DNA of 64,000 nt from Bacteroidota bacterium (lineage in GTDB: Bacteria; Bacteroidota; Bacteroidia; Palsa-948), in the NCBI GenBank assembly GCA_016213405.1, contig JACRAM010000116.1:269-64268 (forward strand), given 5' to 3'. The notes under the pieces were generated by a model. It was not told the origin of the DNA and did not search any database. It saw only the letters and a list, made by a program, of their open reading frames with translations. Below are positions 9,223-64,000 of the stretch, piece by piece. Each line of letters starts with the position of its first letter. Position 1 is the first letter of the stretch. A program made the translations under genes and the position numbers.

Positions 9223-9268
9223 CGTGTGTGTGTATTATAGTTGATTTATTTATTGCTTTTCTTTCGTA

Positions 9269-9781: not shown

Positions 9782-9792
9782 CTTTAAAATTA

Positions 9793-10482: not shown

Positions 10483-10495
10483 TTTATTTTCAATT

Positions 10496-10927
10496 TTATT
10501 TCTTTCCTTCAACGTTGATTCCCATACTGCGCGCTTGTCCGGCTACCATGCTCATGGCAGATTCCAGCTTGAAACAATTCATGTCAACCATTTTATCTTC
10601 CGCAATTGCTTTGATCTGCGCTAAGGTAATGGTGCCCATCTTTTTTCTATTAGGTTCTCCGGAACCACTTTCAATTTTCATAGCCTCTTTTAACTGCGCT
10701 GCAACAGGAGGTCTTTTAAGGATGAACTCAAAAGTTTTATCTTTATAAACAGTAATAATCGCAGGGATCATTTTATTTCCCAGTTCTTTTGTGCGGGCAT
10801 TGAACTGCTTACAGAACTCCATGATGTTAACACCCTTCGCACCGAGCGCAGGACCGATGGGAGGCGCAGGGTTTGCAGATCCTGCTTTAATTACCAGTTT
10901 TACTAATGCGCCAACTTCTTTTGCCAT
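10496..10927 (-). CDS. rplK: 50S ribosomal protein L11
   Basis: 143 aa; [43 protein letters not shown] is canonical L11. Confidence 0.95.
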
Positions 10928-10942
10928 TGTTCAAAAAATAAA

Positions 10943-11536
10943 TTATTGTTTTTCTACTTGCATGTAACTGAGTTCAAGTGGAGTTTTACGTCCGAAAATC
11001 TTAACAGTTACTTTTAGTTTTTTCTTTTCTTCTATTACTTCTTCAATTGTTCCGGTGAATGTGTTGAACGGGCCGTCAATTATTTTTACCGTATCACCCA
11101 CATAAAACGGAATATTTATTTTTTCAGTTGTCTCAGCCAATTCATCCACTTTTCCGAGGATGCGGTTCACTTCCGAAAGGCGAAGCGGTGTGGCTTCCCC
11201 GTTTTTGCTTCCGAGAAAACCTAAAACACCAGGTACGTTTCTAATTGTATGCGGAACTTCTCCAGAAAGGGTTGCTTCTACCAGAATATATCCGGGAAAA
11301 AAATTTCTTTCTTTGCTTACCTTTTTTCCTGCGCGAATCTGAAATACTTTTTCTGTCGGAATCAAAACCTGAGAAACGAATTTGGTAAGTTTCATGCGCT
11401 TGATTTCCGCTTCAATGCTTTGCTTGATCTTTTTTTCCTTTCCGCTGATAGCGCGAACTACAAACCAACGCTTATCATCAGCAGGTTTAGGAGAATTTGT
11501 AATTTTCACTTCTTGATGTTCGGCAGTTGTTGTCAT
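10943..11536 (-). CDS. nusG: Transcription termination/antitermination factor NusG
   Basis: 197 aa; NGN domain and KOW motif VGDTVKIIDGPFNTFTGTIEEV. Confidence 0.93.
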   Translation of the reverse strand: MTTTAEHQEVKITNSPKPADDKRWFVVRAISGKEKKIKQSIEAEIKRMKLTKFVSQVLIPTEKVFQIRAGKKVSKERNFFPGYILVEATLSGEVPHTIRNVPGVLGFLGSKNGEATPLRLSEVNRILGKVDELAETTEKINIPFYVGDTVKIIDGPFNTFTGTIEEVIEEKKKLKVTVKIFGRKTPLELSYMQVEKQ

Positions 11537-11539
11537 TGA

Positions 11540-11734
11540 TTAACTAAAAAAATTATAAATCATTTCCATTATAAATTTAAAAGCAACATCCATCCCATAT
11601 ACAAGCAATGCAGTTATCAATGTTGCAATCATAACAATCACTGCACTGCCCTGAAGTTCTTTCCAAGCGGGCCAGGAAACTTTTGTAGCCAATTCGCTGT
11701 ACGTATCATTTATATATGCTTTTACTTTATTCAT
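11540..11734 (-). CDS. secE: Preprotein translocase subunit SecE
   Basis: About 64 aa with a single TM helix (AVIVMIATLITALLVYGMDVAF), in the conserved position upstream of nusG. Confidence 0.8.
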   Translation of the reverse strand: MNKVKAYINDTYSELATKVSWPAWKELQGSAVIVMIATLITALLVYGMDVAFKFIMEMIYNFFS

Positions 11735-11749
11735 CTTCCTTATTATATG

Positions 11750-11822
11750 CACAGGTGGAGAGGGTCGAACTCCCAGCCTGCGGTTTTGGAGACCGCTGCT
11801 CTACCAATTGAGCTACACCTGT
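11750..11822 (-). tRNA. tRNA-Trp (anticodon CCA)
   Basis: Manual fold: acceptor ACAGGTG/CACCTGT, D-arm GCTC-AATTGGTA-GAGC, anticodon loop CTCCAAA, T-arm GGGAG-TTCGACC-CTCTC. Resembles E. coli tRNA-Trp. Confidence 0.85.
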
Positions 11823-11903
11823 TTCTCAGTTGGGAGTCAGTAGTCAGGAGTTTGGAGAGGTGAGATATGAAGTTTCTCCCAACTCCTAACTCCATACTCC
11901 AAA

Positions 11904-13091
11904 CTATTTTATGATTTCAATTACTTGTCCGGCACCAACTGTTCTTCCGCCCTCGCGGATAGCAAAACGCAATCCTTTATCCATCGCAACGGGCTGAATC
12001 AATTCAACCTGAATAGTTACGTTGTCGCCAGGCATTACCATTTCGCGTCCTTCAGGAAGAGTACAGGTTCCTGTTACGTCAGTTGTTCGCATGTAAAACT
12101 GAGGACGGTAATTATTATGGAACGGAGTATGACGTCCGCCTTCTTCTTTTTTCAGAACATAAACTTCAGCTTTGAAAATAGTATGTGGAGTGATAGAGCC
12201 CGGCTTGGCAAGAACCATTCCTCTCCAAATATCTTTTTTATCTACACCGCGGAGAAGAAGTCCAGCGTTATCTCCGGCTTGTCCTGAATCAAGTTCTTTT
12301 CTGAACATTTCAACTCCGGTGATAACAGTTTTTACTTTTTCTGCACGCATTCCAACGATTTCGATTTCTTCGCCTACTTTGCAAACACCTTGTTCGATTC
12401 TGCCGGTAGCAACCGTTCCGCGACCAGTGATTGAAAAAATATCTTCAACAGGCATAAGGAATGGTTTGTCAATTATACGAACGGGCATAGGAATGTATGA
12501 GTCAACAGCATCCATGAGTTCCATAATTTTTGGAACCCATTTTGCATCTTTATTCATTGCTCCAAGAGCAGATCCCTTGATGATAGGTGTGTTTTTTCCA
12601 TCGTAACCATAGAAAGTGAGCAGATCACGGATTTCGCCTTCAACAAGTTCGATAAGATCCGGATCGTCAACCATATCAACTTTATTCATGAACACAACAA
12701 CTTGCGGAACACCCACCTGACGTGCAAGAAGAATATGTTCGCGGGTTTGTGGCATGGGTCCGTCAGTAGCTGCAACAACGAGAATCGCTCCGTCCATCTG
12801 CGCAGCTCCTGTAACCATGTTCTTAACATAGTCTGCGTGACCAGGGCAGTCAACGTGTGCATAGTGGCGTTTGTCAGTTGAGTATTCTACGTGCGCAGTG
12901 TTGATAGTGATACCGCGTTCTTTTTCTTCGGGAGCATTATCAATAGATGCAAAGTCGCGCACAGATGCAAGACCTTTATCTGCAAGCACCATAGTGATTG
13001 CGGCAGTGAGAGTAGTTTTTCCGTGGTCAACGTGACCGATTGTTCCGATGTTAACGTGTGGTTTGGAACGGTCGAATTTTTCTTTTGCCAT
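11904..13091 (-). CDS. tuf: Elongation factor Tu
   Basis: 395 aa; [22 protein letters not shown] motifs. Confidence 0.98.
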
Positions 13092-46108: not shown

Positions 46109-47434
46109 TTACCGTGCAATGATAAGTTTTTGAACTGAACTTGTTGAATGCTCAGCATTAATTTGTAGAAAATAAATTCCTTGCCCCAACTCTGAAGGGA
46201 TAGTAATATTTATTTTCTTACTTTCTTTTTGGTGGGGACTTTCTTCATACACTTTTTCTCCCATGGTGTTGTAGATTTCAATGTTTGAAATCTGAAATCC
46301 GAAATCCGAAATCTGAAACTTTCCTGAATTTGGATTAGGATAAACTGTAAACAGTAAATCAGAAACCGTAGGCTCATTTACTCCAACCGCTTTTTCCCAT
46401 TTTGCAATGTAGTTGACGATGTTTGTATCTGCTTGGGTGAAGAATCCTCCTGCATAAATTTCACCGTTGTAAGTTCCCAGTACACGCACAGTATTGTTCA
46501 TTCCGCCAGCCATCGCAGACCAGTTGGTTCCATTCCAAACAGCAACATAATTAGCAGGATTTCCTCCTGCGTTTGTAAACCATCCGCCTGCATATAAATT
46601 TCCTGAAAAAGAAAGCAAAGCAATTACTGAATTGTTTGTTCCGCTTCCAACAGAAGTCCAATTGATTCCATCCCATACAGCAATATTGCTGACGGGGTTT
46701 GCGCCTGCCAGCGAGAATGTGCCGCCAGCATATAATTTCCCGTTATAAACTTCAAGTGAATATACGGAACCATTCGTTCCTCCGCCAACAGTTGACCAAG
46801 TGGTTCCATTCCACTTGGCAATATAACTTGCAGCCATTCCATCTGCTGTATCAAACTGCCCACCTACATAAAGTTCACTATTGTAAACTGCCATAGCATT
46901 TACCACATTATTTGTTCCGCTGAGAACAGAATCGAACAGCGTGCCATTGAATTGTGCGATGTTGTTCACTGTAATTCCTCCGGCAGTAGCGAAGCCACCG
47001 CCAATGTAAAGTTCTCCATTGTAAACAGTAAGGTTTTTTACATTGCAGTTACCGGTAGTAAATCCTATCGAATCCCAACTGGTGCCGTTCCATCTGGAAA
47101 AAAATTTTCTAATCTTGTTTCCTGCATTCGTAAATGAGCCGCCTGCGTAAAGTTGATTGTTATACATAGCAAGCGCACTCACATAACCGTTAGATAATCC
47201 TGTTCCTATTGTATCCCAAGTTGTTCCGTTCCATTGTGCGATACGGCTGCAAGGCGAGCCATTGGCTGTATCAAACTGCCCGCCTGCATATAAGCGATTA
47301 TTTAATGGATCGCCTGCAAGAGAAAACACAGCAAAATCAAAACCATTGCCAACGGGCTGCCATGTTTGAGCGCACACATTAAAAGTTTCTACCACCTGTA
47401 TAAATCCAAAAATTGCAATTAGAAAAGGTTTCAT
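46109..47434 (-). CDS. T9SS-secreted protein with about nine tandem 45-50-aa repeats (probably beta-propeller-like)
   Basis: Signal peptide. Repeats of the form LYAGGxFxxAGGxxxNxIAxWNGTxWxxVGxGxNxxVxAL. C-terminal T9SS sorting domain. Confidence 0.7.
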   Translation of the reverse strand: MKPFLIAIFGFIQVVETFNVCAQTWQPVGNGFDFAVFSLAGDPLNNRLYAGGQFDTANGSPCSRIAQWNGTTWDTIGTGLSNGYVSALAMYNNQLYAGGSFTNAGNKIRKFFSRWNGTSWDSIGFTTGNCNVKNLTVYNGELYIGGGFATAGGITVNNIAQFNGTLFDSVLSGTNNVVNAMAVYNSELYVGGQFDTADGMAASYIAKWNGTTWSTVGGGTNGSVYSLEVYNGKLYAGGTFSLAGANPVSNIAVWDGINWTSVGSGTNNSVIALLSFSGNLYAGGWFTNAGGNPANYVAVWNGTNWSAMAGGMNNTVRVLGTYNGEIYAGGFFTQADTNIVNYIAKWEKAVGVNEPTVSDLLFTVYPNPNSGKFQISDFGFQISNIEIYNTMGEKVYEESPHQKESKKINITIPSELGQGIYFLQINAEHSTSSVQKLIIAR

Positions 47435-47448
47435 GTAAATATTTTTTA

Positions 47449-48498
47449 CTATTGCTTAATGAATTTGCTCCCGAAATTTCCCTTGTCTGTCATGATTTGA
47501 ATGAAATAGATTCCCGCGTTTAACTTTGATATTTCTATCTTATTGCTTTCTATTTTTCCGATACTGACTAAAAACCCCATGCTGTTAAATATCTTATATG
47601 AAACAGGAGTAAATAAGGATTTTTTCTCAATAAAAAGAAAATCAGTTGCCGGATTAGGATAAATTGAAAATGAGTTTTCGTATTTGATTTCATTTACAAA
47701 AGCAAAGACCGTTGTTTTCCATATACTGTCTGCCCATTGCGGATTATCAATATATGGATTTCTGTTATTTTGAAAAAGGTAATAAATGGAATCATTTCTG
47801 GCAATCTCTTTAGCGCTCACAGAATCCTGATGATGCCATTGCAATAAAACATTTACCTGCCAGGGCAATATATCAGATTTGTTGGTTGCGCCTGATGAAG
47901 ACCATCCTGCATCTTCAGAATAGTAACGTGTGCTCATATAAAAATAAGTTCTTGCTAAATCTCCTTTATATTCGTCTATTGGTTCAAAAACGGTAAGACT
48001 GTATCCTGTGTCAGAGCAAGATCCTAATTTGCTGCCATTTAAACTTGTCCAACTTGCAATGCCAACATCGCCATAAGGATAATTGTTGCGTTGCCCGTTT
48101 ACTTTTCCATCAGTAGGATAAACTTGAAACAAATCGGAGACAGGTCCGTTTACAGAATTAAACCAGCTTTGCGGCCAGCTATGCTCACGGTTATAACAAT
48201 CGCCTTCATTGCTATAGCTTCCGCATTGATCAGTACCAAAAGTAAATTCGTAGGGTGGTGTGCCAGAAGGAACATCGCTGTATATATCCCATACTTTTCC
48301 ATTTGGCATTTTATCTGTTTTCGTATAGACATTCCATAATGAATTATAAGAAATCACAGAATGATTCTTTATAATATTATGTAAAGCAATTTTTAAATTA
48401 TTGCCTGTTAATCCCTGTGCTGAATTGTAATATCCCGGAGGAATCTGTGCGAAACAAAAACTACATGTAATAATACACAGAAGCGGAAGAAGTTTCAT
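47449..48498 (-). CDS. Secreted endonuclease I family (EndA/NucM/Vvn-like) nuclease with a T9SS C-terminal sorting domain
   Basis: CYNREHSWPQSWFN matches the endonuclease I active-site region. Signal peptide MKLLPLLCIITCSFCFAQ. C-terminal T9SS sorting domain. Confidence 0.7.
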   Translation of the reverse strand: MKLLPLLCIITCSFCFAQIPPGYYNSAQGLTGNNLKIALHNIIKNHSVISYNSLWNVYTKTDKMPNGKVWDIYSDVPSGTPPYEFTFGTDQCGSYSNEGDCYNREHSWPQSWFNSVNGPVSDLFQVYPTDGKVNGQRNNYPYGDVGIASWTSLNGSKLGSCSDTGYSLTVFEPIDEYKGDLARTYFYMSTRYYSEDAGWSSSGATNKSDILPWQVNVLLQWHHQDSVSAKEIARNDSIYYLFQNNRNPYIDNPQWADSIWKTTVFAFVNEIKYENSFSIYPNPATDFLFIEKKSLFTPVSYKIFNSMGFLVSIGKIESNKIEISKLNAGIYFIQIMTDKGNFGSKFIKQ

Positions 48499-48545
48499 TA
48501 TTTTTATTATTTTATTAAATTCCCCAACCATTTTCTAAAACGTAG

Positions 48546-52243: not shown

Positions 52244-53047
52244 ATGATTTCAGAAAAGAATCCTAAACTTCTTCAGAAAGAGCTAAGAAAAAAAATTCTC
52301 GATTTGCATTTTTCTGCAAATGCAGGACATATTGGTTGTTCTCTGAGTTGCATAGATATATTAATTGCCACATTGGTTCTTCAAAAGAAAGAAGATGATA
52401 TTTTTATTTTGTCGAAAGGACACGCAGCTTCAGCCTTATATGTTTGTTTGAATCATCTTGGTGAAATTTCAAATGAACAATTAAAAACTTTTTATAAAAA
52501 TGGCACTGCACTTCCTGCGCATCCTGCTCCGCAAAAATTTAAAAGCATTCCATTTGGTATTGGTTCGCTGGGACATGGATTTTCATTGGGAGCAGGTGTT
52601 GCAAAAGCAAAAAAAATATCTGAAGAAACTGGATTTGTATTTGTCGTAATGTCAGATGGGGAAACAAATGAAGGAACAACCTGGGAGGCAGGACATTTTG
52701 CGCGTCAACATAAGCTGGATAATCTTTTACTTTTTGTGGATAAAAATAAATTGCAGGGCTTTGGAGAAACTAAAGATGTTCTCGGAGATACATGCAAAGA
52801 AGAAAGCTGGACAGCTCTTGGTTTTGATGTTTATACTGTTGATGGACATAACATTGAAGAGATAATAAATAAGATGGAGATTATTAAACAATCAAAAAAT
52901 GACAGTCCTAAAATCATCATTGCGGAAACTATAAAAGGGAAGGGAGTTTCATTTATGGAAAATAAATTAGATTGGCATTATTTGCCTATGTCAGCAGAAT
53001 TATATCAAAGAGCATTAAAAGAGATTTTGGAAAAATATTCCTTATAA
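52244..53047 (+). CDS. Transketolase, N-terminal (TPP/PP-binding) subunit
   Basis: ANAGHIGCSLSCIDIL, GSLGHGFSLGAGVA and DGETNEGTTWEA are transketolase N-terminal motifs. 267 aa, so a split enzyme. Confidence 0.85.
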   Translation: MISEKNPKLLQKELRKKILDLHFSANAGHIGCSLSCIDILIATLVLQKKEDDIFILSKGHAASALYVCLNHLGEISNEQLKTFYKNGTALPAHPAPQKFKSIPFGIGSLGHGFSLGAGVAKAKKISEETGFVFVVMSDGETNEGTTWEAGHFARQHKLDNLLLFVDKNKLQGFGETKDVLGDTCKEESWTALGFDVYTVDGHNIEEIINKMEIIKQSKNDSPKIIIAETIKGKGVSFMENKLDWHYLPMSAELYQRALKEILEKYSL

Positions 53048-53178
53048 TTTTTATAAATGTTGCTCTGTCGTGCAATGAAAAATGAGTGACATCTTGCACC
53101 TTTGCAGATTTTTATGTATAATTTTGTCCAAGCCAGATGTTCTAATTGATGCTTAAACACTCATTGGTATAAACCCTC

Positions 53179-54816
53179 ATGAATATACTACAAAGAAATA
53201 AAAAAAATGTTATTATTTTTTTGCTCCTGCTTTTTATTTCCATCCTTGCTTATAGAAATGTTTTTGGCATATTAATTTCTACAGATTTTTATCCTATGCT
53301 ATACTTTTTTGAAAAGTATGGGCTTGATGCAATATCAAATAATTTTTATGAACCAGGGATACAGCATTTTTTTGTACATCTTGTATTTTTTTTTCTATAT
53401 CATATTTTTGGAATCAGCAACACAGGATGGATTGGGTTTTTTGTTCTAGTTCATTGCTTAAATGCATTCTTGCTCTATAAAATCACAAATGAATTATGCA
53501 ATATTTTTTTGGTTGTTAAAAAAACGTTGTTGTCATTTTTCGCCTCCTTGATTTTTTTATTGTCTCCTTATCAAGTCGAAGCCGTGCTTTGGTCGTTTGC
53601 TTATCCCTTTGCTGTTTTCCTGATGTTGCTTGGATTGCTTTTAACCATTTATTATTTAAAAGAAAATAAAATTTATTTTCTAGTCGCAGTACAAATTTGT
53701 TTTGCTTTAGCGCTATTGTCGTTTGAATCTACAATAATACTTCCTGTTATCTGTTTCCTTTTTTATTTTCTTTTTAAAAATACACCTTACAGGATTAATT
53801 CCTTTTATAACTATATTTTCATAGTAATCTTCCCTCAGATAATAATTATTTTTCTTTATTTTTCCATGTCCAAATTATATACTGGAGATTGGATCGGGCA
53901 CTATGGTGCGGCTGTTCATTTGAAATTTTCACCTATTCTTATCGCTACTAATCTGATAAAATATTTTGTAAAATTTTTTTTATTCTATCGTTTTTTGCCT
54001 TTAGAAAGGCAAAGTATTATCCACGATTACCTTCATATTAATATACATAATACTTTTACTGTTTTGATATTAATTATTTTTTGTGCATTTATTTTTTCAA
54101 TATTTTTTTGGAGAATAATCAAACAAAGAGATTCACTGGGAAAACTTATAGTATTTACTTTTTTTACTTTCATCATCTCTTTGATTCCGGTAATAAATTT
54201 AGATACTACTTTTATAGGCGCAATTGCTTCGGATAGATATGGATATCTGCCTTCGGTATTTTTTTATTCTTTTTTCTCTTTCAGTATTTATTATTTGTTA
54301 AAAAGATTTTGGATTATCATTTTAACGGGTTTGTCAGCACTTTGTTTCACCCTGCTTTCAAATATATTGTGTGTTTGGATTGATGCCAGCAATTATTCTA
54401 AAAACCTGATTAAGAATTTTGAGCCGTGGTTGTCAAAAACAAATATTTATATGCTCAATATGCCTGATAATTATAATTGGGTATTTACTTTCAGTGGCGG
54501 TTTTAAGGAAGCAATCTATTTTAAGTATCACAAAGAAATCCCCCCGTTAAATATTATATCTGCCTATTGCATGACCAGCGTCAGTGACTCTATATTGATT
54601 GACAGAATTGATTCAAATACCCTTTTTGTTTCATCTCATAATGCTCAAAGAGCATTTTTGTTTGGCGGCAGATGGCTGCAGTCATTTAAAGCTAAAATGT
54701 ATGATGTGGATATTAATGAAGCTTCTTCTTCTTTTACCATAAGGTTTAATAAATTACCTGACGATGCAACTATTTTGTATGTTGCCGGTGATAAGTGGAG
54801 GGAACTAAAACTCTAA
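53179..54816 (+). CDS. Polytopic membrane protein (about 12 TM), putative GT-C-type glycosyltransferase
   Basis: Highly hydrophobic 545-aa protein. Its context next to a polyprenyl-P-sugar synthase suggests a lipid-linked-donor glycosyltransferase. Confidence 0.4.
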   Translation: MNILQRNKKNVIIFLLLLFISILAYRNVFGILISTDFYPMLYFFEKYGLDAISNNFYEPGIQHFFVHLVFFFLYHIFGISNTGWIGFFVLVHCLNAFLLYKITNELCNIFLVVKKTLLSFFASLIFLLSPYQVEAVLWSFAYPFAVFLMLLGLLLTIYYLKENKIYFLVAVQICFALALLSFESTIILPVICFLFYFLFKNTPYRINSFYNYIFIVIFPQIIIIFLYFSMSKLYTGDWIGHYGAAVHLKFSPILIATNLIKYFVKFFLFYRFLPLERQSIIHDYLHINIHNTFTVLILIIFCAFIFSIFFWRIIKQRDSLGKLIVFTFFTFIISLIPVINLDTTFIGAIASDRYGYLPSVFFYSFFSFSIYYLLKRFWIIILTGLSALCFTLLSNILCVWIDASNYSKNLIKNFEPWLSKTNIYMLNMPDNYNWVFTFSGGFKEAIYFKYHKEIPPLNIISAYCMTSVSDSILIDRIDSNTLFVSSHNAQRAFLFGGRWLQSFKAKMYDVDINEASSSFTIRFNKLPDDATILYVAGDKWRELKL

Positions 54817-54822
54817 ATAATT

Positions 54823-56799
54823 ATGAAATTAGACAAACAAATTAATAATGCTGGTGTTCAAAATACACTTGCATTTTTTCTATTTGCTGTCAGTGTTAGT
54901 TCCTCTGTTTCTTGTTTGCTATATTTATTGTTTTATCATTACTCATCCTATTTTTGGTCATTTAATGAAAAAATCCCTTACTCAGAAGCACTTCCATATA
55001 TTCGATTACATTTCAAGGAGCATGATGGTATTGAAGGATACGTTCTTTATGTTATGATGTTTGTGAATATTATTATTTCGTTTTTATCAGTCAGCTTTTT
55101 TTTATACTTGAAAAATAAATTTGTTAAATCAATTCTGATTCTATTATTGATATTTATTTCTTCCTTTTTTTTTATTAAAATAGGTTTTTATCCACCCATG
55201 AGTGCTACATCAAACAGTGCATTTATTTTATTAATAGTTCCTATTCTTGTTTGCCTGCTTTTCTTCATTGCTTTGAAAATATTCGAACGGATGTCCACAT
55301 TATTTAATTGCATCTTTATTGTTCTTCTTATTCCTATTTGTTTCATTGCAATTTCTCCTATAGTTGTTTATGATTATTCATTTCTGTTCTTTCCAGCTAT
55401 TAGAATATTGAATGGATTTGGTATTTCTGAAATATATTTCAGGTATGATGTATTATTATCACTTATTGCTTTTCTCTGGATGAAATTACATATTAATATA
55501 AATTACTTTCAAATAGTTGGACAGGTTTCCTATTTCCTTTTTTTTATAGGACTTTTTTTCTTTTCGAAGTCTCTTTTTATAAATAAAAAATTATCTGTTT
55601 CCTTGCTTGTGTTGGTAGTGATTATTAAATATTTCGCTTTAGGAAGTGATCCAATATCAGTTTTTGAAATAACCCCATTAAGGTTAGACTTATGGATACT
55701 CATTCTTTTTTTTATTTATGAAAAAGGTGTTTATCATTGGACCGTTGGGTTTATAACAGGTCTCCTCGTGCTTCTTCATAAAAACTTTGGGATAATATAT
55801 CTCGCTTCATACATTGAGTTATGCGGAATTCTTTTTTTAGCAGACATTTTAAAAAAACCATTTATGAGTACGAATTTTTATGCATTAATGAAAATAATAG
55901 TTAAAAAACATTTTATTTTAAATAGTAAAAACTTTTTAATATTAGTTGCATTTGCGCTTTTTTCAATTTATTTATTTAACGGATTAATTTTGGGGAGTGC
56001 CCTTGATTTTCAAAAAATTGGAATCGGATTTCTTCCTATTGCGCCAAATTCTTTCTATTGGTATTTTCCAATAATTTCAAGTATGACAGTTTTGTTTTTA
56101 TATAAAAACAAACCTCTGCTATCGGAGAGGTATTTTTCTACATCTCTTTTTATTGTCTTGCTGGCAATAGGAAATTCAATGTATTTTTTTGGAAGAAGCC
56201 ACGAGAATAATATAATAAACATATCTGGTATTTTACTTTTGAATTTATTTTTGCTGTTTGATCTTTTGAACATAAGTGCAAAACATTTTTTTATCGACTC
56301 CCTTGTGAGAAAAGAACGAGATAGTCAAAAAATATCTAACAATAGAATGCGTAGATTAATGATTCCTAATATATCAGTTTGCTTGCCTGTAATAATGATT
56401 CTTCTTTCTTCATTCTATTATTCCAATGCAATACTAACAGAGTTAAAAGACAAAGCACATTATTTAAAAGAGATGAAATTTATTCAACCCATAAATGGGA
56501 TTCCTTCGTGTAATGATTTTGCTGTAATAAAAAAAATAACCAACAATAGTTTAAAGGTTTATTTTCTTGAATATGATAATTTTGTTTATTACTATTATGG
56601 AAACTATACGCCTATCGGGTATTATAATCCATCTGGTGCCTGGATTTTCAAAAAAGATTTTGTGGCTTTTCTCCAGAACCTTCTGAAAAATAATTATTAC
56701 CTTGTAATTTCGAATCCGCTGGATGCTTCAGAACTACTACCATATTTAAAGTATACTAGAACAATCACTGAGAATAAATACACAGCGATAAAATTGTAG
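54823..56799 (+). CDS. Polytopic membrane protein (658 aa), paralog of the next gene; putative GT-C-type glycosyltransferase
   Basis: Shares with the 680-aa neighbour the motifs DGIEGYVLYVMMF, HENNIINISGILLLNLFLLFDL and YYYYGNYTPIGYYNP. Confidence 0.4.
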   Translation: MKLDKQINNAGVQNTLAFFLFAVSVSSSVSCLLYLLFYHYSSYFWSFNEKIPYSEALPYIRLHFKEHDGIEGYVLYVMMFVNIIISFLSVSFFLYLKNKFVKSILILLLIFISSFFFIKIGFYPPMSATSNSAFILLIVPILVCLLFFIALKIFERMSTLFNCIFIVLLIPICFIAISPIVVYDYSFLFFPAIRILNGFGISEIYFRYDVLLSLIAFLWMKLHININYFQIVGQVSYFLFFIGLFFFSKSLFINKKLSVSLLVLVVIIKYFALGSDPISVFEITPLRLDLWILILFFIYEKGVYHWTVGFITGLLVLLHKNFGIIYLASYIELCGILFLADILKKPFMSTNFYALMKIIVKKHFILNSKNFLILVAFALFSIYLFNGLILGSALDFQKIGIGFLPIAPNSFYWYFPIISSMTVLFLYKNKPLLSERYFSTSLFIVLLAIGNSMYFFGRSHENNIINISGILLLNLFLLFDLLNISAKHFFIDSLVRKERDSQKISNNRMRRLMIPNISVCLPVIMILLSSFYYSNAILTELKDKAHYLKEMKFIQPINGIPSCNDFAVIKKITNNSLKVYFLEYDNFVYYYYGNYTPIGYYNPSGAWIFKKDFVAFLQNLLKNNYYLVISNPLDASELLPYLKYTRTITENKYTAIKL

Positions 56800-56910
56800 G
56801 GAATTAATATTCCAATACGGCTGCAAAATTAGATTTGTCTATTGCAGACGAAGAATATCAAAAAGTGCTAATTTCTTTCAGAAAAATATTCGTAATAACA
56901 CATCTAAATT

Positions 56911-58953
56911 TTGATTGATTTCTCCAAGATATTGCCTCTGTTTTCAATCTTGATTCTATCAGGTTATTTTTTTTTAAAGAAGAAAAATTTTTCTGACCCT
57001 TTATCATTTCATGGATTTAATAGATTTTCCACAGCTGAACTAATAGTTATTTGCTCTTCAGTTACTGCTATCCTATACTTTCTGTTTAATAAATACTCTA
57101 CTTTTTTTTGGTCATTCCATCAAAAAATCCCAAGTACAGATGTAATGCCTTTTTGGCGTGATTCAATTAATCAATATGACGGCATTGAAGGATATGTGTT
57201 ATATATTCTGATGTTTTTGAATATCATCTTTGCGTTCGTTTTTATTCACATAATTTCATATTTGAAAAATAATTTTCAAAGAACTATTCTGTTTTCTGTA
57301 TTAATTCTTATAACTTCTTTTTTATATCTGAGCGTGGGTTTTAATCCACCCCTAAATGAACCATCTGAAAAAATTAACATTGCAGTTGGTGTTCCCTTAG
57401 TTACTTCTTTGATATTATTTATTTCATTATGGATTTATGGAAAAAGCTCCCAAACATTTAATTTCATTTTTATTATTTGCCTAATACCAGTTTGTTTTGT
57501 TGCAATCAGTCCAATAAGTATTTGGGATTATTCACTTATACTTTCCCCATCTCTTCGGATGCTGAATGGAGCCCGCCTTTCTGACATATATTGTCCTTAT
57601 GATTTATTTTTATCTTTTATTGGAGTTTTATGGATGAAATTAAAATTTGACATTAATTATCTTCAAATTCTGGCGCAGGCATCTTTTTTTATTTTTTTCA
57701 TAAGCACATTTTTCTTCTTCAAAAAATTATTCATTAATAAAACACTTTCTGTTTTTCTTTTGCTTCTTTATGTAATTATCAAGTATTACGTAATTTGTCA
57801 TGATCCATCAATTTTATTGGCAGTTACCCCATTGCGATTAGATTTATGGATAATTATTTTAGTGCTTCTTTTTTGGAAAGGAGTTTATCATTGGGCGGTT
57901 GGATGTGCCCTTGGTTTATTAATATTAATTCACAGAAATTTTGGAATTATTTATTTGTTCTCCTATATTGAACTTTGTGCAATTCTATTTTTTATAGATA
58001 TATGGGGAATATTTTTGATAAAGAAAAATGTTTTATTAAGTATTAATGAAACAATAAAAAAACATTTTTTTTCTAATATCATTAATATTTTGATAATACT
58101 TGGATTTGCATCTTATACCGCTTATTTGCTAAATGGACTATCTCCGAAAAGTGCGCTCTTATTTCAAAAAACAGGAATAGGTATGCTGCCTATTTCAATT
58201 AATTCTTTTTATTGGTTTTTCCCAATTATTTCAAGTATGTCAGCTTGTTTGTTATTTAAACAAAAAAATAAATTGTCGAAACAATATTTTTCTTCATCAC
58301 TTTTTATAATTCTGCTTGCAATAGGTAATTCACTTTATTTTTTTGGAAGAAGCCATGAAAATAACATTATCAATATTTCAGGAATTCTGCTTTTGAATTT
58401 ATTTTTGCTTTTTGATTTGCCCGTACAAAATGAAAAAAAATATGCATTTATGTTTGGATGGGGTATAAAATTTAATTTGATTTTTGGAATCAAAACTTTT
58501 TTATTGCCATTTATCCTTCTTTTGCTTTCTTCTTCTTATTATTCAGACAGGATAATTTGGAGAATAAAAGATCAGGCGCATAATATTAAGCAGTGGACAA
58601 TTATTCCGCATTTTAGCGGTGTTCCTGCTGAGAAGGACTTTTTTGCAATAAAAAAGATTTCCAATAATAGTTCACTGGTTTATTTCTTAGATTATCAAAA
58701 TGATTTTGTTTATTATTATTACGGAAATTATGCTCCAGTTGGCTACTTCAATCCCTGCTCCTCTTGGCTTTTAAAAAAAGATTTTATAATTTTTATAAAT
58801 AATCTTTTAGCAAATGGATATTATGTTGTTACAACTAATTCAGAAGACATTTCTGAATTATTGCCATATTTAGACTTTAATAAAAAACAAGAAGATGGCG
58901 TATACACTTCTTATAAGAAAGATAAAATTCCTGCTTTTGAGTTAATTCACTAA
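56911..58953 (+). CDS. Polytopic membrane protein (680 aa), tandem paralog of the previous gene
   Basis: Same conserved blocks as the 658-aa protein (DGIEGYVLYILMF, FFGRSHENNIINISGILLLNLFLLFDL, YYYYGNYAPVGYFNP). Confidence 0.4.
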   Translation: MIDFSKILPLFSILILSGYFFLKKKNFSDPLSFHGFNRFSTAELIVICSSVTAILYFLFNKYSTFFWSFHQKIPSTDVMPFWRDSINQYDGIEGYVLYILMFLNIIFAFVFIHIISYLKNNFQRTILFSVLILITSFLYLSVGFNPPLNEPSEKINIAVGVPLVTSLILFISLWIYGKSSQTFNFIFIICLIPVCFVAISPISIWDYSLILSPSLRMLNGARLSDIYCPYDLFLSFIGVLWMKLKFDINYLQILAQASFFIFFISTFFFFKKLFINKTLSVFLLLLYVIIKYYVICHDPSILLAVTPLRLDLWIIILVLLFWKGVYHWAVGCALGLLILIHRNFGIIYLFSYIELCAILFFIDIWGIFLIKKNVLLSINETIKKHFFSNIINILIILGFASYTAYLLNGLSPKSALLFQKTGIGMLPISINSFYWFFPIISSMSACLLFKQKNKLSKQYFSSSLFIILLAIGNSLYFFGRSHENNIINISGILLLNLFLLFDLPVQNEKKYAFMFGWGIKFNLIFGIKTFLLPFILLLLSSSYYSDRIIWRIKDQAHNIKQWTIIPHFSGVPAEKDFFAIKKISNNSSLVYFLDYQNDFVYYYYGNYAPVGYFNPCSSWLLKKDFIIFINNLLANGYYVVTTNSEDISELLPYLDFNKKQEDGVYTSYKKDKIPAFELIH

Positions 58954-58956
58954 CAT

Positions 58957-60951
58957 GTGATAATGGCTGCATCAAATAATGTCATTGAAGAAAAGATTAA
59001 TTTCCTGAAAGGACCCATTTTTATTTTTGGTTCCAGCGGATTTATTGGCGCTAATCTATTAGATGTGATCTTAAAATACCGAAAGGATTGCTATGCAATC
59101 ACTCATGATGTGAGACACGCATGGCGTCTTAAGCTTCTGAATATTCCTCCTGAAAATATTTTATATTGTGATTTACTTATTAAAAATTCTGTTATTGAAC
59201 TTTTAGAAAGAAATAAGCCGCAAACTATTTTTAATCTTGCAGCGTACGGTAGCTATTCAAAAGAGAACGAAGTCGGCTTGATTTATGAAACTAACCTGAT
59301 TGGAACATTAAATATCTTACAGCATCTCGGGCAGATTGCTGCCTATGTTCATGCAGGAAGTAGTTCAGAATACGGATTGAATTCTGAAAGCCCTTTTGAG
59401 AATGATGAGATGATCCCCAACAGCCATTATGCAGTTTCAAAAGTTTCAACTGGATATTTATTAAAACATTACGGCAAAATTCATCAGTTGCCGGTTGTCA
59501 ATTTGAGATTGTATTCTGTGTATGGACCATGGGAAGAACCAGATCGATTTATTCCACAACTCATAGAAAATGCAAAGCAAAAAAAACTGCCCGTTTTGGT
59601 TTCTCCTTACATAAGCCGGGATTTTTTATTCATTGATGATTGTATTGTTGCTTTTATAAATGCAGCTTACTATATGAATTCCTCTTTATATGGGGAGTCG
59701 ATTAATATAGGTACGGGAAAAAAAAATACTATCAAAGAAACTGTAGATTATGTGATTGAATTATTTGGGCTGAACATTCAGGCGAATTGGGGAAGTATGC
59801 CTGATAGGAAATGGGATTTGAAAAACTGGTACGGCAATTATGAGAAAGCAAATCGCTTACTATTCTGGCATCCAACAGTTGAATTAAAAGAAGGATTGTT
59901 AAAAACGAGCCAGTGGCAGGATTCGCAAAATTATTCTTCAACAATACTTCCGGCATTTCAAGAACCGAAACAGGTTAATAAAATTTCCTGCGTGATTGCC
60001 TGCTATAAAGATGAACCGGCAATCACTATTATGTATGAGCGGCTTAAAAAGGTATTTTCAGAACTGAAAATCAGGTATGAAATAATTTTTGTCAACGATG
60101 CTTCTCCAGACAATTCCCAGCAAGTGTTATCGGAAATTTGTAATAACGATTCAGATGTTGTTGCAATTACTCATTCCAGAAATTTTGGTTCTCAATCAGC
60201 ATTTTTAAGCGGAATGGAAATATCAACCGGTGATGCAGTAGTTCTTATGGATGGCGATTTGCAAGACCCGCCTGAAATTATTCCCCGCATGTATGAAAAA
60301 TGGATTGCTGGCAATGAAGTAGTGTATGGAAGGCGTGTAAAAAGAGAAGCATCGGCATTCATGAACGCATCTTATAAATTATTTTATAAAATTTTCAGTC
60401 GCTTATCTTATGTAGATATTCCATCAGATGCCGGAGATTTTTCAATGATAGACAGGAAGGTAGTAAATGAGTTGCTGAAACTTCCGGAGAAAGATCAATT
60501 CCTGCGCGGGCTCAGAGCATGGGTTGGATTCTCGCAAACGGGAGTTGACTATGTTCGACCAGAAAGAATGTTTGGTAAAAGCACTAACAATTGGAGAAAA
60601 AATATTTGGTGGGCAAAAAAAGCAATGTTCTCTTTCAGTTTCATCCCGCTTGAAATTTTAAGTTATATGGGATTTATTTTAACAGGGATTTCTTTTTTGG
60701 CGCTTATTGCTCAGATAATAATTAGATTTCTTTATCCTGACATACCTCATGGAGTAACTACAATTATTGTTCTGATATTATTTTTTGGCGGAGTGCAGCT
60801 TTTAGCCATATCTATATTGGGAGAATATCTATCCAAGGTTTTTGAAGAAACGAAAGGACGCCCAAAGTTCATCAGAAGATCAGTCATTTACAAAGGGAAA
60901 AAATTGGAAACCCCTTCTGAAATTCAAAGTTTAGTTAATGTGGTGAAGTAA
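58957..60951 (+). CDS. Fusion protein: NAD-dependent epimerase/dehydratase (SDR) domain plus GT2 polyprenyl-phosphate glycosyltransferase (ArnC/DPM1/GtrB-like) with C-terminal TM helices
   Basis: N-terminal Rossmann FGSSGFIGANL and YAVSK. C-terminal GT2 region with ISCVIACYKDE, FVNDASPDNS and MDGDLQDPPE, followed by two TM helices. Confidence 0.75.
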   Translation: MIMAASNNVIEEKINFLKGPIFIFGSSGFIGANLLDVILKYRKDCYAITHDVRHAWRLKLLNIPPENILYCDLLIKNSVIELLERNKPQTIFNLAAYGSYSKENEVGLIYETNLIGTLNILQHLGQIAAYVHAGSSSEYGLNSESPFENDEMIPNSHYAVSKVSTGYLLKHYGKIHQLPVVNLRLYSVYGPWEEPDRFIPQLIENAKQKKLPVLVSPYISRDFLFIDDCIVAFINAAYYMNSSLYGESINIGTGKKNTIKETVDYVIELFGLNIQANWGSMPDRKWDLKNWYGNYEKANRLLFWHPTVELKEGLLKTSQWQDSQNYSSTILPAFQEPKQVNKISCVIACYKDEPAITIMYERLKKVFSELKIRYEIIFVNDASPDNSQQVLSEICNNDSDVVAITHSRNFGSQSAFLSGMEISTGDAVVLMDGDLQDPPEIIPRMYEKWIAGNEVVYGRRVKREASAFMNASYKLFYKIFSRLSYVDIPSDAGDFSMIDRKVVNELLKLPEKDQFLRGLRAWVGFSQTGVDYVRPERMFGKSTNNWRKNIWWAKKAMFSFSFIPLEILSYMGFILTGISFLALIAQIIIRFLYPDIPHGVTTIIVLILFFGGVQLLAISILGEYLSKVFEETKGRPKFIRRSVIYKGKKLETPSEIQSLVNVVK

Positions 60952-60972
60952 ACAGCACAACCTGAAAAATTC

Positions 60973-61872
60973 ATGACTACCTATATTGAAAAAATATGTT
61001 TGTTATGTGGGAATAATAAAAATGTAAAAATAAAATTTGAACAAAACTTTAAAACGGAAAATATAAACTCGAAAACATTTTCTGCACGAAGAGTTTCTGA
61101 GCATTACCATTACCGTATTCTTGAATGCAGTGTATGCGGTTTAGTATTTTCTTCCCCCATTCTTCCATTTGATGAAATAAGCAAGCTGTATAAAGAAAGC
61201 CGTCAAACCTACGATGAAGAAACAAATGATATTGCATATTCATATATGTTATATATAAATCAAAACAGCAATTTATTTAAACGTGGCAGAGTTTTGGAAG
61301 TAGGATGCGGCAATGGTTTTTTTCTGAATTCGTTAAAAAAAAATGGATTCAAAGAAGTGCATGGCGTTGAACCATCTGAGGAAGCGGTTGCAAAAGCTGG
61401 AGAATTTCGCTCATTGATTTTAAATAGTATGATAGAAACTGAAAATTACCCGGAAAACTATTTTGATTTAATTTGTTGTTTTCAAACTCTTGATCATTTA
61501 GCGAACCCATTTGAGATGCTGAAAAGATTTTATCGTTTGCTTTTGCCTGGAGGCATGGTTTATATCATTGTTCACAATCAAAAAGGAATGCAGGCAAAAG
61601 TTTTTGGAGAAAAATCTCCTATATATGATGTTGAGCACATTTATCTTTTCAATAAAAATACTTTATCGCATCTTTGTATGTTGGCTGGATTTCAGGTTGT
61701 GAAAATATTTAGTATTAAAAATATTTATTCATTATCTTATTGGATTAAAATGACTCCGCTTCCATTCAAAACGATTTTGTCTAAACTTGTTTCTTTAATC
61801 GGAATGGCAAATTTTAAAGTCGGAATTCATCCCGGAAACATTGGAATATTCATTCAAAAACCAGAACTGTAA
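60973..61872 (+). CDS. Class I SAM-dependent methyltransferase with an N-terminal zinc ribbon
   Basis: CLLCGN...CSVCG zinc ribbon. SAM-binding motif VLEVGCGNGFF. Methyltransf_23-like. Confidence 0.7.
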   Translation: MTTYIEKICLLCGNNKNVKIKFEQNFKTENINSKTFSARRVSEHYHYRILECSVCGLVFSSPILPFDEISKLYKESRQTYDEETNDIAYSYMLYINQNSNLFKRGRVLEVGCGNGFFLNSLKKNGFKEVHGVEPSEEAVAKAGEFRSLILNSMIETENYPENYFDLICCFQTLDHLANPFEMLKRFYRLLLPGGMVYIIVHNQKGMQAKVFGEKSPIYDVEHIYLFNKNTLSHLCMLAGFQVVKIFSIKNIYSLSYWIKMTPLPFKTILSKLVSLIGMANFKVGIHPGNIGIFIQKPEL

Positions 61873-61884
61873 TAAATTTATTTA

Positions 61885-62793
61885 GTGAGAAAAGAGTTTT
61901 CAGCTGCAATCGAGAAAATTTCTGCTAAAGATGAATCTATCATTTTCATTACTGGCGATTTGGGTTATAATGCTTTTGAGTGTCTTCAACAATCATTAGG
62001 CAACCGCTTTATTAACGCTGGCGTTGCTGAACAGAACATGGTTAGCGTGGCTGCGGGAATGGCATCTCATGGCTATAAAGTTTTTTGCTACAGTATTGCT
62101 CCATTTATTGTTTACCGCTGCTTGGAACAGTTTCGAAATGATGTTTGCATGCACAATCTTCCTGTCTTTTTAGTTGGCAATGGCGGTGGATACGGTTATG
62201 GAATAATGGGTCCTACTCATCACGCACTTGAAGACATTGGATGTATGAGCAGTATGCAAAACGTGAAATGCTGGGTGCCTTCATTTAATGATGAAGTTGA
62301 AATTGTTCTAAAAAAAATAATAACAGAAAAAAAACCAACTTATTTAAGATTAAATAATAGCCAGAACGCACCTGCCGGTTTTTCTTCAGCGAACTGTATT
62401 AATTCTGTTATAAAATCATCTAACCCCAAAGCAACTATTATTTCTACGGGCCCGGTAATTAATAATGTGATTAAATCTTTAGCAAATAAAAATATATCAG
62501 GCAAGTGTAACCTGTTTTCTGCATCCTATTTTCCTCTTGAATTGTCAGATGAATTTATTCTGTCCGTAAACTCAACCAACAACTTACTTGTCGTGGAAGA
62601 GCATGTTTCTGCAGGAGGTTTAGCGCAACAGCTATCATTGAAACTGCTGGAGAACAGACTGAAGATTAATAAATTTGTTTCATTGCATGCAAGAGGATAT
62701 CCGAATGGTTTATTTGGAGATCAGCATTATCATCAGGAACAGTCGGGGATAGATGCTGATAATATTTCGAAAGTGTTAACAGAAATGTTTTGA
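61885..62793 (+). CDS. Transketolase, C-terminal (pyrimidine-binding) subunit
   Basis: GVAEQNMVSVAAGMASHG and GPTHHALEDIGCM are typical of the transketolase Pyr/C-terminal half. 302 aa. Confidence 0.85.
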   Translation: MRKEFSAAIEKISAKDESIIFITGDLGYNAFECLQQSLGNRFINAGVAEQNMVSVAAGMASHGYKVFCYSIAPFIVYRCLEQFRNDVCMHNLPVFLVGNGGGYGYGIMGPTHHALEDIGCMSSMQNVKCWVPSFNDEVEIVLKKIITEKKPTYLRLNNSQNAPAGFSSANCINSVIKSSNPKATIISTGPVINNVIKSLANKNISGKCNLFSASYFPLELSDEFILSVNSTNNLLVVEEHVSAGGLAQQLSLKLLENRLKINKFVSLHARGYPNGLFGDQHYHQEQSGIDADNISKVLTEMF

Positions 62794-62799
62794 GAAAAA

Positions 62800-64000
62800 T
62801 TATCGGACTAAAGAAACATTTCCTTTTTTCAAAAAAACCTTTCCTGAACTATATGCACCTTCAATGTAGTAAGTATAAACAGCTGAGATTTCTTTTTTCC
62901 CATTAAATGTTCCATCCCAGCTTTTTGAAACATCAATTGTTTCAAAAACTTTTTCTCCCCAGCGGTTGTAAATGATAAGCGAAAAGGTTTTCACACATTT
63001 TGTTCCCAATGGCAGAAGAATATCGTTTTCGTTATCTTCATTAGGAGAAAAAGCATTGGGAAGATACATTTCTTCTGTACAATCAACTGTCTTTACTGTA
63101 ACTGTATCACATGAAGAATCTGAACAGCCATTTGAATCAATAACTGTTACGCAATAAACGGATGTGATAGGAGGCGAAACGATAATAGAGGATGTGGTTT
63201 CTCCATTGCTCCATGAATAAATTGTTCCCCCGCTTGCGCTTAGCGTGGTGGTGCTTCCTGCAGTGATGGTTACGTTTGTTCCGGCATTAGCTATTGGATT
63301 TGGATTAACAATTATTGAAGCCGAAGCACTGTCTGCACAACTGCCAATTGAAACTACTACTGAATAAGTGCCGGAATTATTTACGACAATAGAAGATGTA
63401 GTTGCTCCGGTACTCCAACTATAATTTCCCCCACCTGATGCGCAAAGTGTTGTCATTTGACCCTGACAAAAATTTGTAATGCCGGAAATACTTGTTGTGG
63501 GAGCAGGGAAAACTGAAACTGTATCTGAAGTTGAACTTGTGCATCCGTTGGCACTTGTAACAGTTACAGAATAACTGGTGGTTGAAGAAGGTGAAACGGT
63601 AATCATTGCTCCTGTTGTGCCGTTATTCCATTGATAAATTCCTCCACCCGATGCAGAGAGGGTTGTATTATCACCGATGCAAAGCGTATTGTTTCCGGAG
63701 ATGGTTGTAGCCGGATTAGGATAAACGGTTACACTTACAGAATTTGTTCCCGTGCACCCCTTGGTATTTGAAACTAAAACGGAATAAGAAGAAGTTGACG
63801 AAGGATTTAAAACAACTGACGTGGCAGTGCTTCCATTGCTCCATAGATAAGTTGTTCCGCCAGAAACTGTAAGTGTTGTTGAATCGTCAGAACAAATAGA
63901 AGTGTTGCCTGATATGAAAACTAAAGGAGATGGATTAACCAATACGGTAATTTTTGCAGTATCAGTTCCACATGCATTTGTTTCAATCACAGTGTAGGAA
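62800..64000 (-). CDS. C-terminal part of a large cell-surface adhesin (SprB/Ig-like repeats plus a CHU_C/T9SS type-B sorting domain). Its N-terminus lies beyond the window
   Basis: Repeats of the ...SGGT.YxWSNG.T... type. The C-terminal gliding-motility-associated domain is YLPNAFSPNEDNENDIL...FSLIIYNRWGEKVFE. Confidence 0.7.
   Translation of the reverse strand, partial: SYTVIETNACGTDTAKITVLVNPSPLVFISGNTSICSDDSTTLTVSGGTTYLWSNGSTATSVVLNPSSTSSYSVLVSNTKGCTGTNSVSVTVYPNPATTISGNNTLCIGDNTTLSASGGGIYQWNNGTTGAMITVSPSSTTSYSVTVTSANGCTSSTSDTVSVFPAPTTSISGITNFCQGQMTTLCASGGGNYSWSTGATTSSIVVNNSGTYSVVVSIGSCADSASASIIVNPNPIANAGTNVTITAGSTTTLSASGGTIYSWSNGETTSSIIVSPPITSVYCVTVIDSNGCSDSSCDTVTVKTVDCTEEMYLPNAFSPNEDNENDILLPLGTKCVKTFSLIIYNRWGEKVFETIDVSKSWDGTFNGKKEISAVYTYYIEGAYSSGKVFLKKGNVSLVR

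Follow-up and report, generated by a model that had tools for sequence, protein, structure and literature searches.

A diverged split transketolase linked to a fused SDR-GtrB-type enzyme and interchangeable GT-C proteins in a predicted lipid-linked glycosylation operon of a Bacteroidota bacterium

Seven genes in a 64,000-nucleotide stretch of a Bacteroidota bacterium (GenBank assembly GCA_016213405.1, contig JACRAM010000116.1; the whole stretch is called the window here) most likely form one operon whose products glycosylate targets outside the cytoplasmic membrane from a lipid-linked donor, in a system of the "three-component" type known from Gtr and Pgf. They encode the two halves of a diverged, thiamine diphosphate (ThDP)-dependent transketolase-like enzyme (TktN and TktC), a short-chain dehydrogenase/reductase (SDR) fused to a family 2 glycosyltransferase (GT2), a methyltransferase and three polytopic membrane proteins called M545, M658 and M680. 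The analysis shows the gene content, the folds, the conserved motifs and the linkage of the genes, and these point to TktN-TktC-SDR-GT2 as the conserved unit, because this core recurs with differing GT-C glycosyltransferase partners (the M658 family, PMT_2, YfhO and others), which are modular and interchangeable. That the locus encodes a Gtr/Pgf-type lipid-linked GT-C system is held with considerable confidence. The explanation towards which we lean for the whole locus adds a transketolase-modified sugar donor and three GT-C enzymes to such a system, and the carbon-carbon bond formation on the sugar by the transketolase, taken by itself and argued by analogy, stays tentative, being plausible but a little short of probable.

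The linkage of the core was followed from two sides. A scan of 185,579 species genomes for the M658 family returned 77 loci, whose neighbouring genes were assigned by tblastn and clustering of open reading frames (ORFs). TktN was present in 31 of them and TktC in 29, with 7 more carrying short forms limited to the pyrimidine-binding (Pyr) domain; the SDR-GT2 fusion occurred in 28, or else SDR and GT2 were separate genes, and a methyltransferase lay beside the GT-C gene. Among the 26 loci with at least 8 kb of sequence on both sides, the complete core of transketolase, SDR and GT2 was found within 10 kb in 15. In the reverse test the diverged TktC was the seed and metagenome contigs were searched: 19 loci had at least 4 kb on both sides, with TktN (17 loci), SDR (17) and GT2 (16) directly adjacent and an M658 homolog in only 1. 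A large polytopic protein stood beside the core in 25 of 30 long transketolase-seeded loci, and these partners belong to PMT_2, YfhO, TPR-bearing and unannotated families. Loci with the cassette were found in Bacteroidota, Victivallaceae, Omnitrophota, Gallionellaceae, Desulfuromonadales, Syntrophales, Elusimicrobia, Planctomycetales and Acidobacteriota. The conserved linkage of the split transketolase, on which the original prediction leaned, is strong towards SDR-GT2 whether the search is seeded on the GT-C protein or on the transketolase.

The transketolase genes usually overlap or directly abut SDR-GT2, and in the majority of related loci TktN lies next to TktC. The two halves do bracket the locus in the window, as had been pointed out, but this is one of two recurrent gene orders and not a defining feature. 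The idea that the bracketing order is unique to the window was dropped: the two halves flank the SDR-GT2 gene in about 17 of 80 transketolase-seeded loci, and likewise in Runella and Larkinella. In the cultured Runella slithyformis and Larkinella soli the genes follow each other as PMT_2 – TktN – SDR-GT2 – TktC – unannotated polytopic protein – acyltransferase, and acyltransferases are also met among the neighbour genes of related loci. The cassette of R. slithyformis DSM 19594 lies in CP002859.1, within 4,571,286-4,592,230. A 130-aa ORF lies between TktN and SDR-GT2 in Runella slithyformis (L078:7578-7970) and is absent in Larkinella; it was considered as a possible flippase and ruled out, being a coiled-coil protein. 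Exceptions to the linkage are two metagenome loci (L096:9001-9882 and L155:9001-9870), each with a cassette-type TktC, 9 kb of flank on each side and no detectable TktN, SDR or GT2. A GtrA flippase was present in 8 of the 77 M658-seeded loci; GtrA, YfhO or other components were not found elsewhere in the 64-kb window. In literature searches, no account came up that connects a split transketolase with GtrB/GT-C systems.

The transketolase halves are recognisable relatives of a housekeeping enzyme. TktN matches the N chain of the Carboxydothermus split transketolase (6yak) with 180 bits and TktC matches 6yaj with 79 bits; TktC also has a weak Transketolase_C match, and further matches of TktN are to DXP_synthase_N (E 5e-13) and E1_dh (E 1e-6). 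None of the NCBIfam transketolase cut-offs is reached by either half. The cofactor site is kept: the ThDP/Mg motif DG...N of TktN reads SDGETNEG (canonical GDG), and TktC retains the cofactor Glu, which is invariant in AEQN, together with the equivalents of R318 and H428. TktN also keeps every His that aligns with one conserved in the Carboxydothermus and human enzymes (in GH, KGH, HP and WH), presumably H26, H66, H100 and H261 of the E. coli enzyme. The differences concern S345, H416, D424 and R474 of the human enzyme, which we take to be residues of the sugar-phosphate substrate site, the substitutions being read from alignments. At the position of H416 all cassette copies that cover it have Gly, in all lineages sampled; that of S345 is never Ser; that of D424 is Met, Asn or Leu in most copies; and that of R474 is variable across cassettes and Asn in the window copy. 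Since the phosphate-binding His has become Gly, and neither the Ser nor, usually, the Asp is kept, TktN/TktC is predicted not to be a pentose-phosphate enzyme and to have lost the sugar-phosphate pocket. The suggestion that the split transketolase points to a rearranged sugar precursor still goes beyond what is observed, but it is better founded than before because the enzyme appears to have lost this pocket. Short TktC forms of about 167 aa, consisting of the Pyr domain with no C-terminal domain, are found in L015, L021, L032, L049, L050 and L060 (e.g. L032:3964-4467); their cassettes are of Omnitrophota, Elusimicrobia and Planctomycetales type, with SDR and GT2 unfused and the order SDR-MT-TktN-TktC-GT2-GT-C (MT, methyltransferase).

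The GT2 half of the fusion is predicted to be a polyprenyl-phosphate glycosyltransferase of GtrB/ArnC type, as had been proposed from its DGDLQDPPE motif, which is present. It belongs to PF00535 and keeps the DxD motif; DGD(L/G)QD hardly varies among 77 cassette copies. The domain aligns with GtrB sll0501 with 236 bits, over GtrB residues 27-325 of 341, and with ArnC with 127 bits, and by the GtrB alignment it should include membrane-anchoring helices. Among NCBIfam models PgfS scores best (232 bits, cut-off 500), and ArnC reaches 153 bits (cut-off 529), both below their equivalog cut-offs. The fusion of this domain to an epimerase-family enzyme was described correctly in the original prediction, which left the choice between epimerase and dehydratase open; by its motifs the SDR looks like a 4-epimerase-type enzyme and not a dehydratase. 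Among solved structures it is nearest to UDP-sugar 4-epimerases and dTDP-glucose 4,6-dehydratase, and it falls below the GalE and RmlB cut-offs of NCBIfam. The motifs were judged by the Asp-Glu pair after Thr for a dehydratase, by Thr-Ser-Glu for a decarboxylase and by Ser/Thr-Tyr-Lys for the catalytic triad. GSSSEYG of the SDR aligns to TSSVYG of UDP-glucuronate 4-epimerase, there is no dehydratase Asp-Glu pair, and the readings as a 4,6-dehydratase or a decarboxylase were set aside on these grounds. GxxGxxG, G(S/T)SSEYG and YxxxK are invariant in the 77 cassette copies.

The membrane proteins had been predicted to be GT-C enzymes, with a structural comparison by Foldseek named beforehand as the check, and all significant matches of M658 and M545 in the Protein Data Bank (PDB) proved to be GT-C proteins. 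The AlphaFold2 model of M658, built on the family alignment, has a predicted local distance difference test score (pLDDT) of 90.9 and a predicted template modelling score (pTM) of 0.92. Its matches are PglB (3.5e-5), ArnT (4.9e-4) and AftA (8e-4), then DPY19 and ALG3, and no other match is significant. For M545 (pLDDT 90.8, pTM 0.92) the top 34 matches are all GT-C (ALG12, AglB, PglB, STT3, ALG9, ArnT, PMT/Pmt4, AftD and AftB). Transporter matches in both searches had a probability below 0.1. By the fold of their models, M658 and M545 belong to the GT-C glycosyltransferase superfamily, and M680 is assigned to it from its identity to M658 (52% over 637 aa, BLASTP E = 0), which also agrees with the description of these two as tandem paralogs. 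Sequence searches of the PDB with M680 and with M545 returned nothing, GT-C kinship being seen only by fold comparison. The same proteins had been called giant; this was overstated, as 545-680 aa is an ordinary size for GT-C enzymes.

M658 and M680 constitute a GT-C family that is without a Pfam or NCBIfam model: neither protein has a Pfam or NCBIfam match at E 0.01, and no Pfam domain covers the membrane part in 120 homologs of the M658 family. The family is compact and sharply bounded, with 448 representative clusters of 1.84 billion at E ≤ 1e-3, of which 285 remain at E ≤ 1e-30. In M658 the sequence D68-G-I-E71 (D68-G-x-E71 in the family) lies at the end of the loop that follows the first long helix (15-45) of the model, with D68 and E71 unchanged across 56 sequences. 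Other invariant residues, D184, D209, R287, H460 and E461, are placed in other loops, and a GRSHEN motif is present. A short KNK linker between helices 2 and 3 would fit a cytoplasmic turn, which would place the D68/E71 loop outside. In M545 an acidic residue, D36, comes just after the first transmembrane helix (2-24) and is conserved at 90% or more in its family. The acidic residues of both models sit at the position of the GT-C catalytic Asp/Glu, and a catalytic role is predicted for them. The block YYYYGNY(A/T)P(I/V)GY, noticed earlier as distinctive of the two paralogs, is real and present in both, but it is a hallmark of the whole family and not special to these two copies; it lies in the C-terminal soluble domain, and in the 56 sequences Y595 is invariant and Y591, G593, G599 and P603 are conserved at 90% or more. 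Many members have an added N-terminal TPR domain and C-terminal LamG domain, and more than one M658-family ORF was found in 11 of the 77 loci, some of them possibly fragments of one gene. The several GT-C paralogs per locus and the TPR and LamG fusions suggest several protein or glycan acceptors. From the conserved linkage to a GtrB-type synthase, the donor of these GT-C enzymes is predicted to be linked to polyprenyl phosphate. In four loci (L003, L043, L047 and L070) an M658-family gene stands beside a plain GtrB-like GT2, 30-35% identical to that of the window, and a GtrA flippase, with no transketolase.

M545 has another history. It has no Pfam or NCBIfam match of its own; PF13231 (PMT_2) is reached by only 3 of 48 members of its family, distant ones, and its kinship to PMT_2 would be remote. 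BLAST and profile-profile comparison gave no relation of M545 to M658/M680, and the unannotated 540-aa partner of Runella is related to neither M545 nor M658 in profile-profile comparison. M545 was considered as a member of the conserved system and rejected, as three homologs (52%, 39% and 29% identity) lie in unrelated contexts; it is normally found elsewhere and was recruited into this locus. The homologs at L161:10001-18059, at L162:6203-14261 and in the P0132 context share a different conserved neighbourhood, between a CDP-alcohol phosphatidyltransferase and an unannotated protein of about 370 aa, followed by a Peptidase_C25 (gingipain-like) protein of about 1700 aa. A few kb upstream lie an NTP-transferase, an epimerase, a polyprenyl synthase and an MMPL transporter, and this neighbourhood may be a separate glycosylation system.

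The methyltransferase, dependent on S-adenosylmethionine (SAM), had been recognised by its zinc ribbon, and both its profile match and the CxxC...CxxC pattern (C9/C12/C52/C55) agree with this; of 40 family members, 38-39 have each of C9, C12 and C52, and 24 have C55. At least one methyltransferase is encoded in 30 of the 34 transketolase-containing loci, from three unrelated families, one of the alternative families having a C-terminal hydrophobic segment that looks membrane-spanning. Methylation is not obligatory, because cassettes of Cytophagales lack a methyltransferase.

The genes of the operon are listed in Table 1. All seven ORFs were found exactly where the original prediction had placed them, on the same strand and with intergenic gaps of 3-132 nt, and the identities of the soluble enzymes were matched by Pfam and NCBIfam profiles. 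In the source Bacteroidetes metagenome-assembled genome the locus tags are HY841_13945-13955.

Table 1. Genes and domains of the operon, in positions of the window
Feature	Position	Strand	Support
TktN: ThDP/diphosphate-binding (PP) half of split transketolase-like enzyme	52244..53047	+	Transketolase_N E 1e-27
M545: 545 aa, predicted GT-C fold membrane glycosyltransferase with C-terminal beta-rich domain, distantly PMT_2-like	53179..54816	+	predicted structure
M658: 658 aa, predicted GT-C fold membrane glycosyltransferase	54823..56799	+	predicted structure
M680: 680 aa, tandem paralog of M658, same GT-C family	56911..58953	+	BLASTP identity
SDR-GT2 fusion, whole gene	58957-60951	+	Epimerase E 3e-39; Glycos_transf_2 E 5e-27
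SDR domain (N-terminal, extended SDR, 4-epimerase-type triad context)	58957..59961	+	boundary to GT2 approximate
GT2 domain (C-terminal, predicted GtrB/ArnC-type polyprenyl-phosphate glycosyltransferase)	59962..60951	+	Glycos_transf_2 E 5e-27
SAM-dependent methyltransferase with N-terminal zinc ribbon	60973..61872	+	Methyltransf_23 E 1.5e-25
TktC: pyrimidine-binding (Pyr) and C-terminal half, altered substrate pocket	61885..62793	+	Transket_pyr E 7e-28

A scan of the locus for promoters and terminators gave results at chance level, with a promoter set that does not cover those of Bacteroidota. The GC content of the three GT-C genes (window 53000-59000) is 0.26-0.30, that of the operon's soluble-enzyme genes 0.32-0.36 and that of the flanks 0.36-0.41; the markedly low values of the GT-C genes could reflect either the composition of membrane proteins or a later acquisition. 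Three cargo proteins of type IX secretion flank the operon (46109-48531 and 62800-63990, - strand). Two of them, a beta-propeller protein and an Endonuclease I, carry Por_Secre_tail; the third is a Ser/Thr-rich protein with Ig_7 repeats and CHU_C. Farther away, at 389-13091 of the window (- strand), ORFs of 1435 and 1271 aa come before several small ones and one of 395 aa. This layout looks like rpoC-rpoB-ribosomal protein-nusG-tuf, and by ORF layout only the window looks like core chromosome.

We infer the following course of events, and this applies to the order of its steps and to the branching reaction as much as to the nucleotide sugar and the acceptor. The four-gene core and the methyltransferase would make a modified sugar on the cytoplasmic face and load it on undecaprenyl phosphate. 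The SDR would oxidise a hydroxyl of a UDP-sugar, probably at C4, to a ketone, and this carbonyl would receive a two-carbon hydroxyacetyl unit from the split ThDP enzyme, giving a C-branched or chain-extended sugar. The methyltransferase would cap a hydroxyl, and the SDR's own NADH may, in our own speculation, reduce the branch ketone in a redox-neutral cycle. The lipid-linked sugar would be turned over by a flippase encoded outside the locus, and M545, M658 and M680 would transfer it to periplasmic or surface acceptors. The formation of a carbon-carbon bond is proposed because the only documented precedent for such a pairing of enzymes is a proposal for miharamycin and amipurimycin biosynthesis, in which split-gene transketolases would move a hydroxyacetyl unit onto a keto sugar made by an oxidoreductase (PMC12247030). 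In an Actinoplanes polysaccharide cluster a methyltransferase, TktN and TktC are encoded in this order beside keto-sugar aminotransferases (PMC13390465). The transketolase enzymes of Actinoplanes bear the tags AMIS_56710/56720.

Several observations weigh against this mechanism. No flippase gene is present in the window or in most cassettes. Epimerases normally hold the 4-keto intermediate bound, and it is puzzling how a transketolase would reach the ketone of an epimerase-type SDR; the invariant Glu138 directly before Tyr-Gly in GSSSEYG is also unexplained. Some M658 homologs pair with plain GtrB-like enzymes in loci with no transketolase, and because some of these members stand with GtrB-like GT2 and GtrA, the M658 family is not restricted to a transketolase-derived donor. 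M545 might use a different donor, because its homologs are not cassette-linked, and the cassettes of Cytophagales do without the methyltransferase. The proposal for the split-gene transketolases is itself unproven in vitro, the 13 predicted examples being all from Streptomycetes and uncharacterised (PMC12247030).

As an alternative, the operon might be a plain Pgf/Gtr system, with the SDR as a PgfE-like UDP-sugar 4-epimerase that feeds galactose (Gal), N-acetylgalactosamine (GalNAc) or galacturonic acid (GalA) to the GT2, and the transketolase and methyltransferase acting elsewhere or being metabolic neighbours. The SDR motif aligns best with 4-epimerases and shows no dehydratase or decarboxylase residues, PgfS is the best NCBIfam match of the GT2, and the composition of Pgf is exactly an epimerase, a GT-A and two GT-C enzymes. 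However, the transketolase is the tightest-linked partner of SDR-GT2 in every lineage sampled, and having lost the residues for housekeeping substrates it is hard to sustain as a bystander; a methyltransferase, taken from any of the three families, is also retained in nearly all the loci counted above. This explanation is regarded as rather unlikely. The ThDP chemistry might also be a different one, in which pyruvate or another 2-keto acid gives an acetyl or hydroxyethyl branch as with YerE or AviB1/B2, or else SDR, transketolase and methyltransferase might act after the loading of undecaprenyl phosphate, as DprE1/DprE2 do on decaprenyl-phosphoribose. Two-subunit ThDP enzymes of E1 type make C2-branched sugars in antibiotic pathways, and the matches of TktN to DXP_synthase_N and E1_dh would suit this, but the scores put the enzyme nearer to true transketolases than to 1-deoxy-D-xylulose-5-phosphate synthase (DXS) or E1. 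The His residues of transketolases contact the C1 hydroxyl of the donor, and TktN keeps them. An SDR fused to a membrane-bound GT2 would sit beside the lipid-linked product, and the apparently membrane-spanning segment of one alternative methyltransferase family is in line with chemistry after loading; soluble and lipid-linked substrates, however, are not discriminated by sequence. Taken together, these two variants are unlikely but worth keeping in sight.

A more distant thought is that a heptulose, an octulose or some other uncommon free sugar phosphate comes from the transketolase-like enzyme, is activated elsewhere and then serves the GT2. Other pathways do employ trans-ketol and trans-aldol enzymes to build higher-carbon sugar phosphates, and R318, one phosphate-contacting residue, is conserved. 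Against it, the conserved core has no kinase, phosphomutase or nucleotidyltransferase, and several residues that we take to bind the sugar phosphate or the C2 hydroxyl are replaced, which makes this route quite improbable. Highly improbable is also the view that the polytopic proteins are transporters, polymerases or ligases merely resembling GT-C. It could draw on the modest Foldseek TM-scores (0.33-0.48), on the 8-13% identity to solved GT-C structures and on the missing Pfam match of M658, but every significant structural match is a GT-C and none a transporter, and the conserved acidic residues stand at the GT-C catalytic position. The genes are moreover linked to a GtrB-type donor synthase, and in other cassettes the recognised GT-C families PMT_2 and YfhO likewise lie beside the core. 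The preferred explanation, a Gtr/Pgf-type system with a transketolase-modified donor, can be widened to an undescribed and widespread route, in which a split transketolase and a fused SDR/GtrB enzyme would build a C-branched or chain-extended sugar on undecaprenyl phosphate, to be installed on envelope targets by interchangeable GT-C enzymes; this wider claim is put forward as a conjecture, possible though somewhat less than probable.

Lipid-linked periplasmic glycosylation, as performed by Gtr, Arn, Pgf and PMT systems, shapes serotype, antibiotic resistance and protein stability. To our knowledge, all characterised cases use a donor sugar that is either ordinary or simply modified. If the proposal is true, a carbon-carbon-bond-forming ThDP enzyme coupled to glycosylation would mean a new sugar chemistry for bacterial envelopes; it would be the first transketolase-dependent sugar branching outside Streptomyces secondary metabolism and the first in lipid-carrier glycosylation. 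It would also provide biocatalysis with a large and phylogenetically broad set of ketone-accepting transketolases, for which the current candidates are only the 13 Streptomyces sequences (PMC12247030). Because the culturable Runella slithyformis and Larkinella soli possess the core, the hypothesis can be tested directly.

The logic of the locus had originally been likened to ArnC/ArnT or to the mycobacterial decaprenylphosphoryl arabinose (DPA) and Emb systems. The lipid-linked GT-C logic stands, but the closest worked-out analogue is Gtr/Pgf and not DPA/Emb. These reference systems comprise the flippase GtrA, a GT-A enzyme (GtrB or PgfS), a GT-C enzyme (GtrC, YfhO or PgfM1/M2) and, in Streptococcus mutans, the epimerase PgfE; the validated streptococcal Pgf set of one GT-A, one epimerase and two GT-C enzymes (PgfS, PgfE and PgfM1/M2) glycosylates extracytoplasmic proteins (PMC12041528). 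The present locus is similar in that a GtrB-type GT2, an epimerase-family SDR and two or more GT-C enzymes are encoded together, and GtrA and YfhO occur in loci related to it. It differs in the fusion of SDR to GT2, in the diverged split transketolase as an obligatory partner with a methyltransferase usually present, in a main GT-C family (M658/M680) outside Pfam and NCBIfam models, and in having no flippase gene in the window. The hosts sampled here are Bacteroidota, Proteobacteria and other non-Firmicute lineages. The ArnA/ArnC/ArnT pathway is alike in that an SDR acts through a 4-keto UDP-sugar, an ArnC-type GT2 loads undecaprenyl phosphate and a GT-C enzyme, ArnT, transfers the sugar in the periplasm; ArnT is among the structural matches of both M658 and M545. 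In contrast to Arn, the locus has no aminotransferase, formyltransferase, deformylase or ArnE/F, a ThDP enzyme would replace the amino-group chemistry, the SDR lacks the decarboxylase Glu position and the GT2 misses the ArnC cut-off.

With the housekeeping transketolases (Carboxydothermus 6yak/6yaj and human TKT) the cassette enzyme shares the domain order, the split point, the cofactor motifs and the catalytic His residues, but it departs from them at the four substrate positions described above, and one cassette subgroup has lost the whole C-terminal domain. The split transketolases of miharamycin and amipurimycin biosynthesis are comparable by gene content and proposed role, as a two-gene transketolase lies there beside an oxidoreductase in a sugar-modifying pathway (PMC12247030); those, however, are secondary-metabolite nucleoside pathways of Streptomycetes, whereas the cassette belongs to a predicted lipid-carrier glycosylation of many lineages. 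It can be said that the system as such, lipid-linked extracytoplasmic glycosylation, is of a known kind, and that the new elements are its widely conserved donor-synthesis core and its unmodelled GT-C family.

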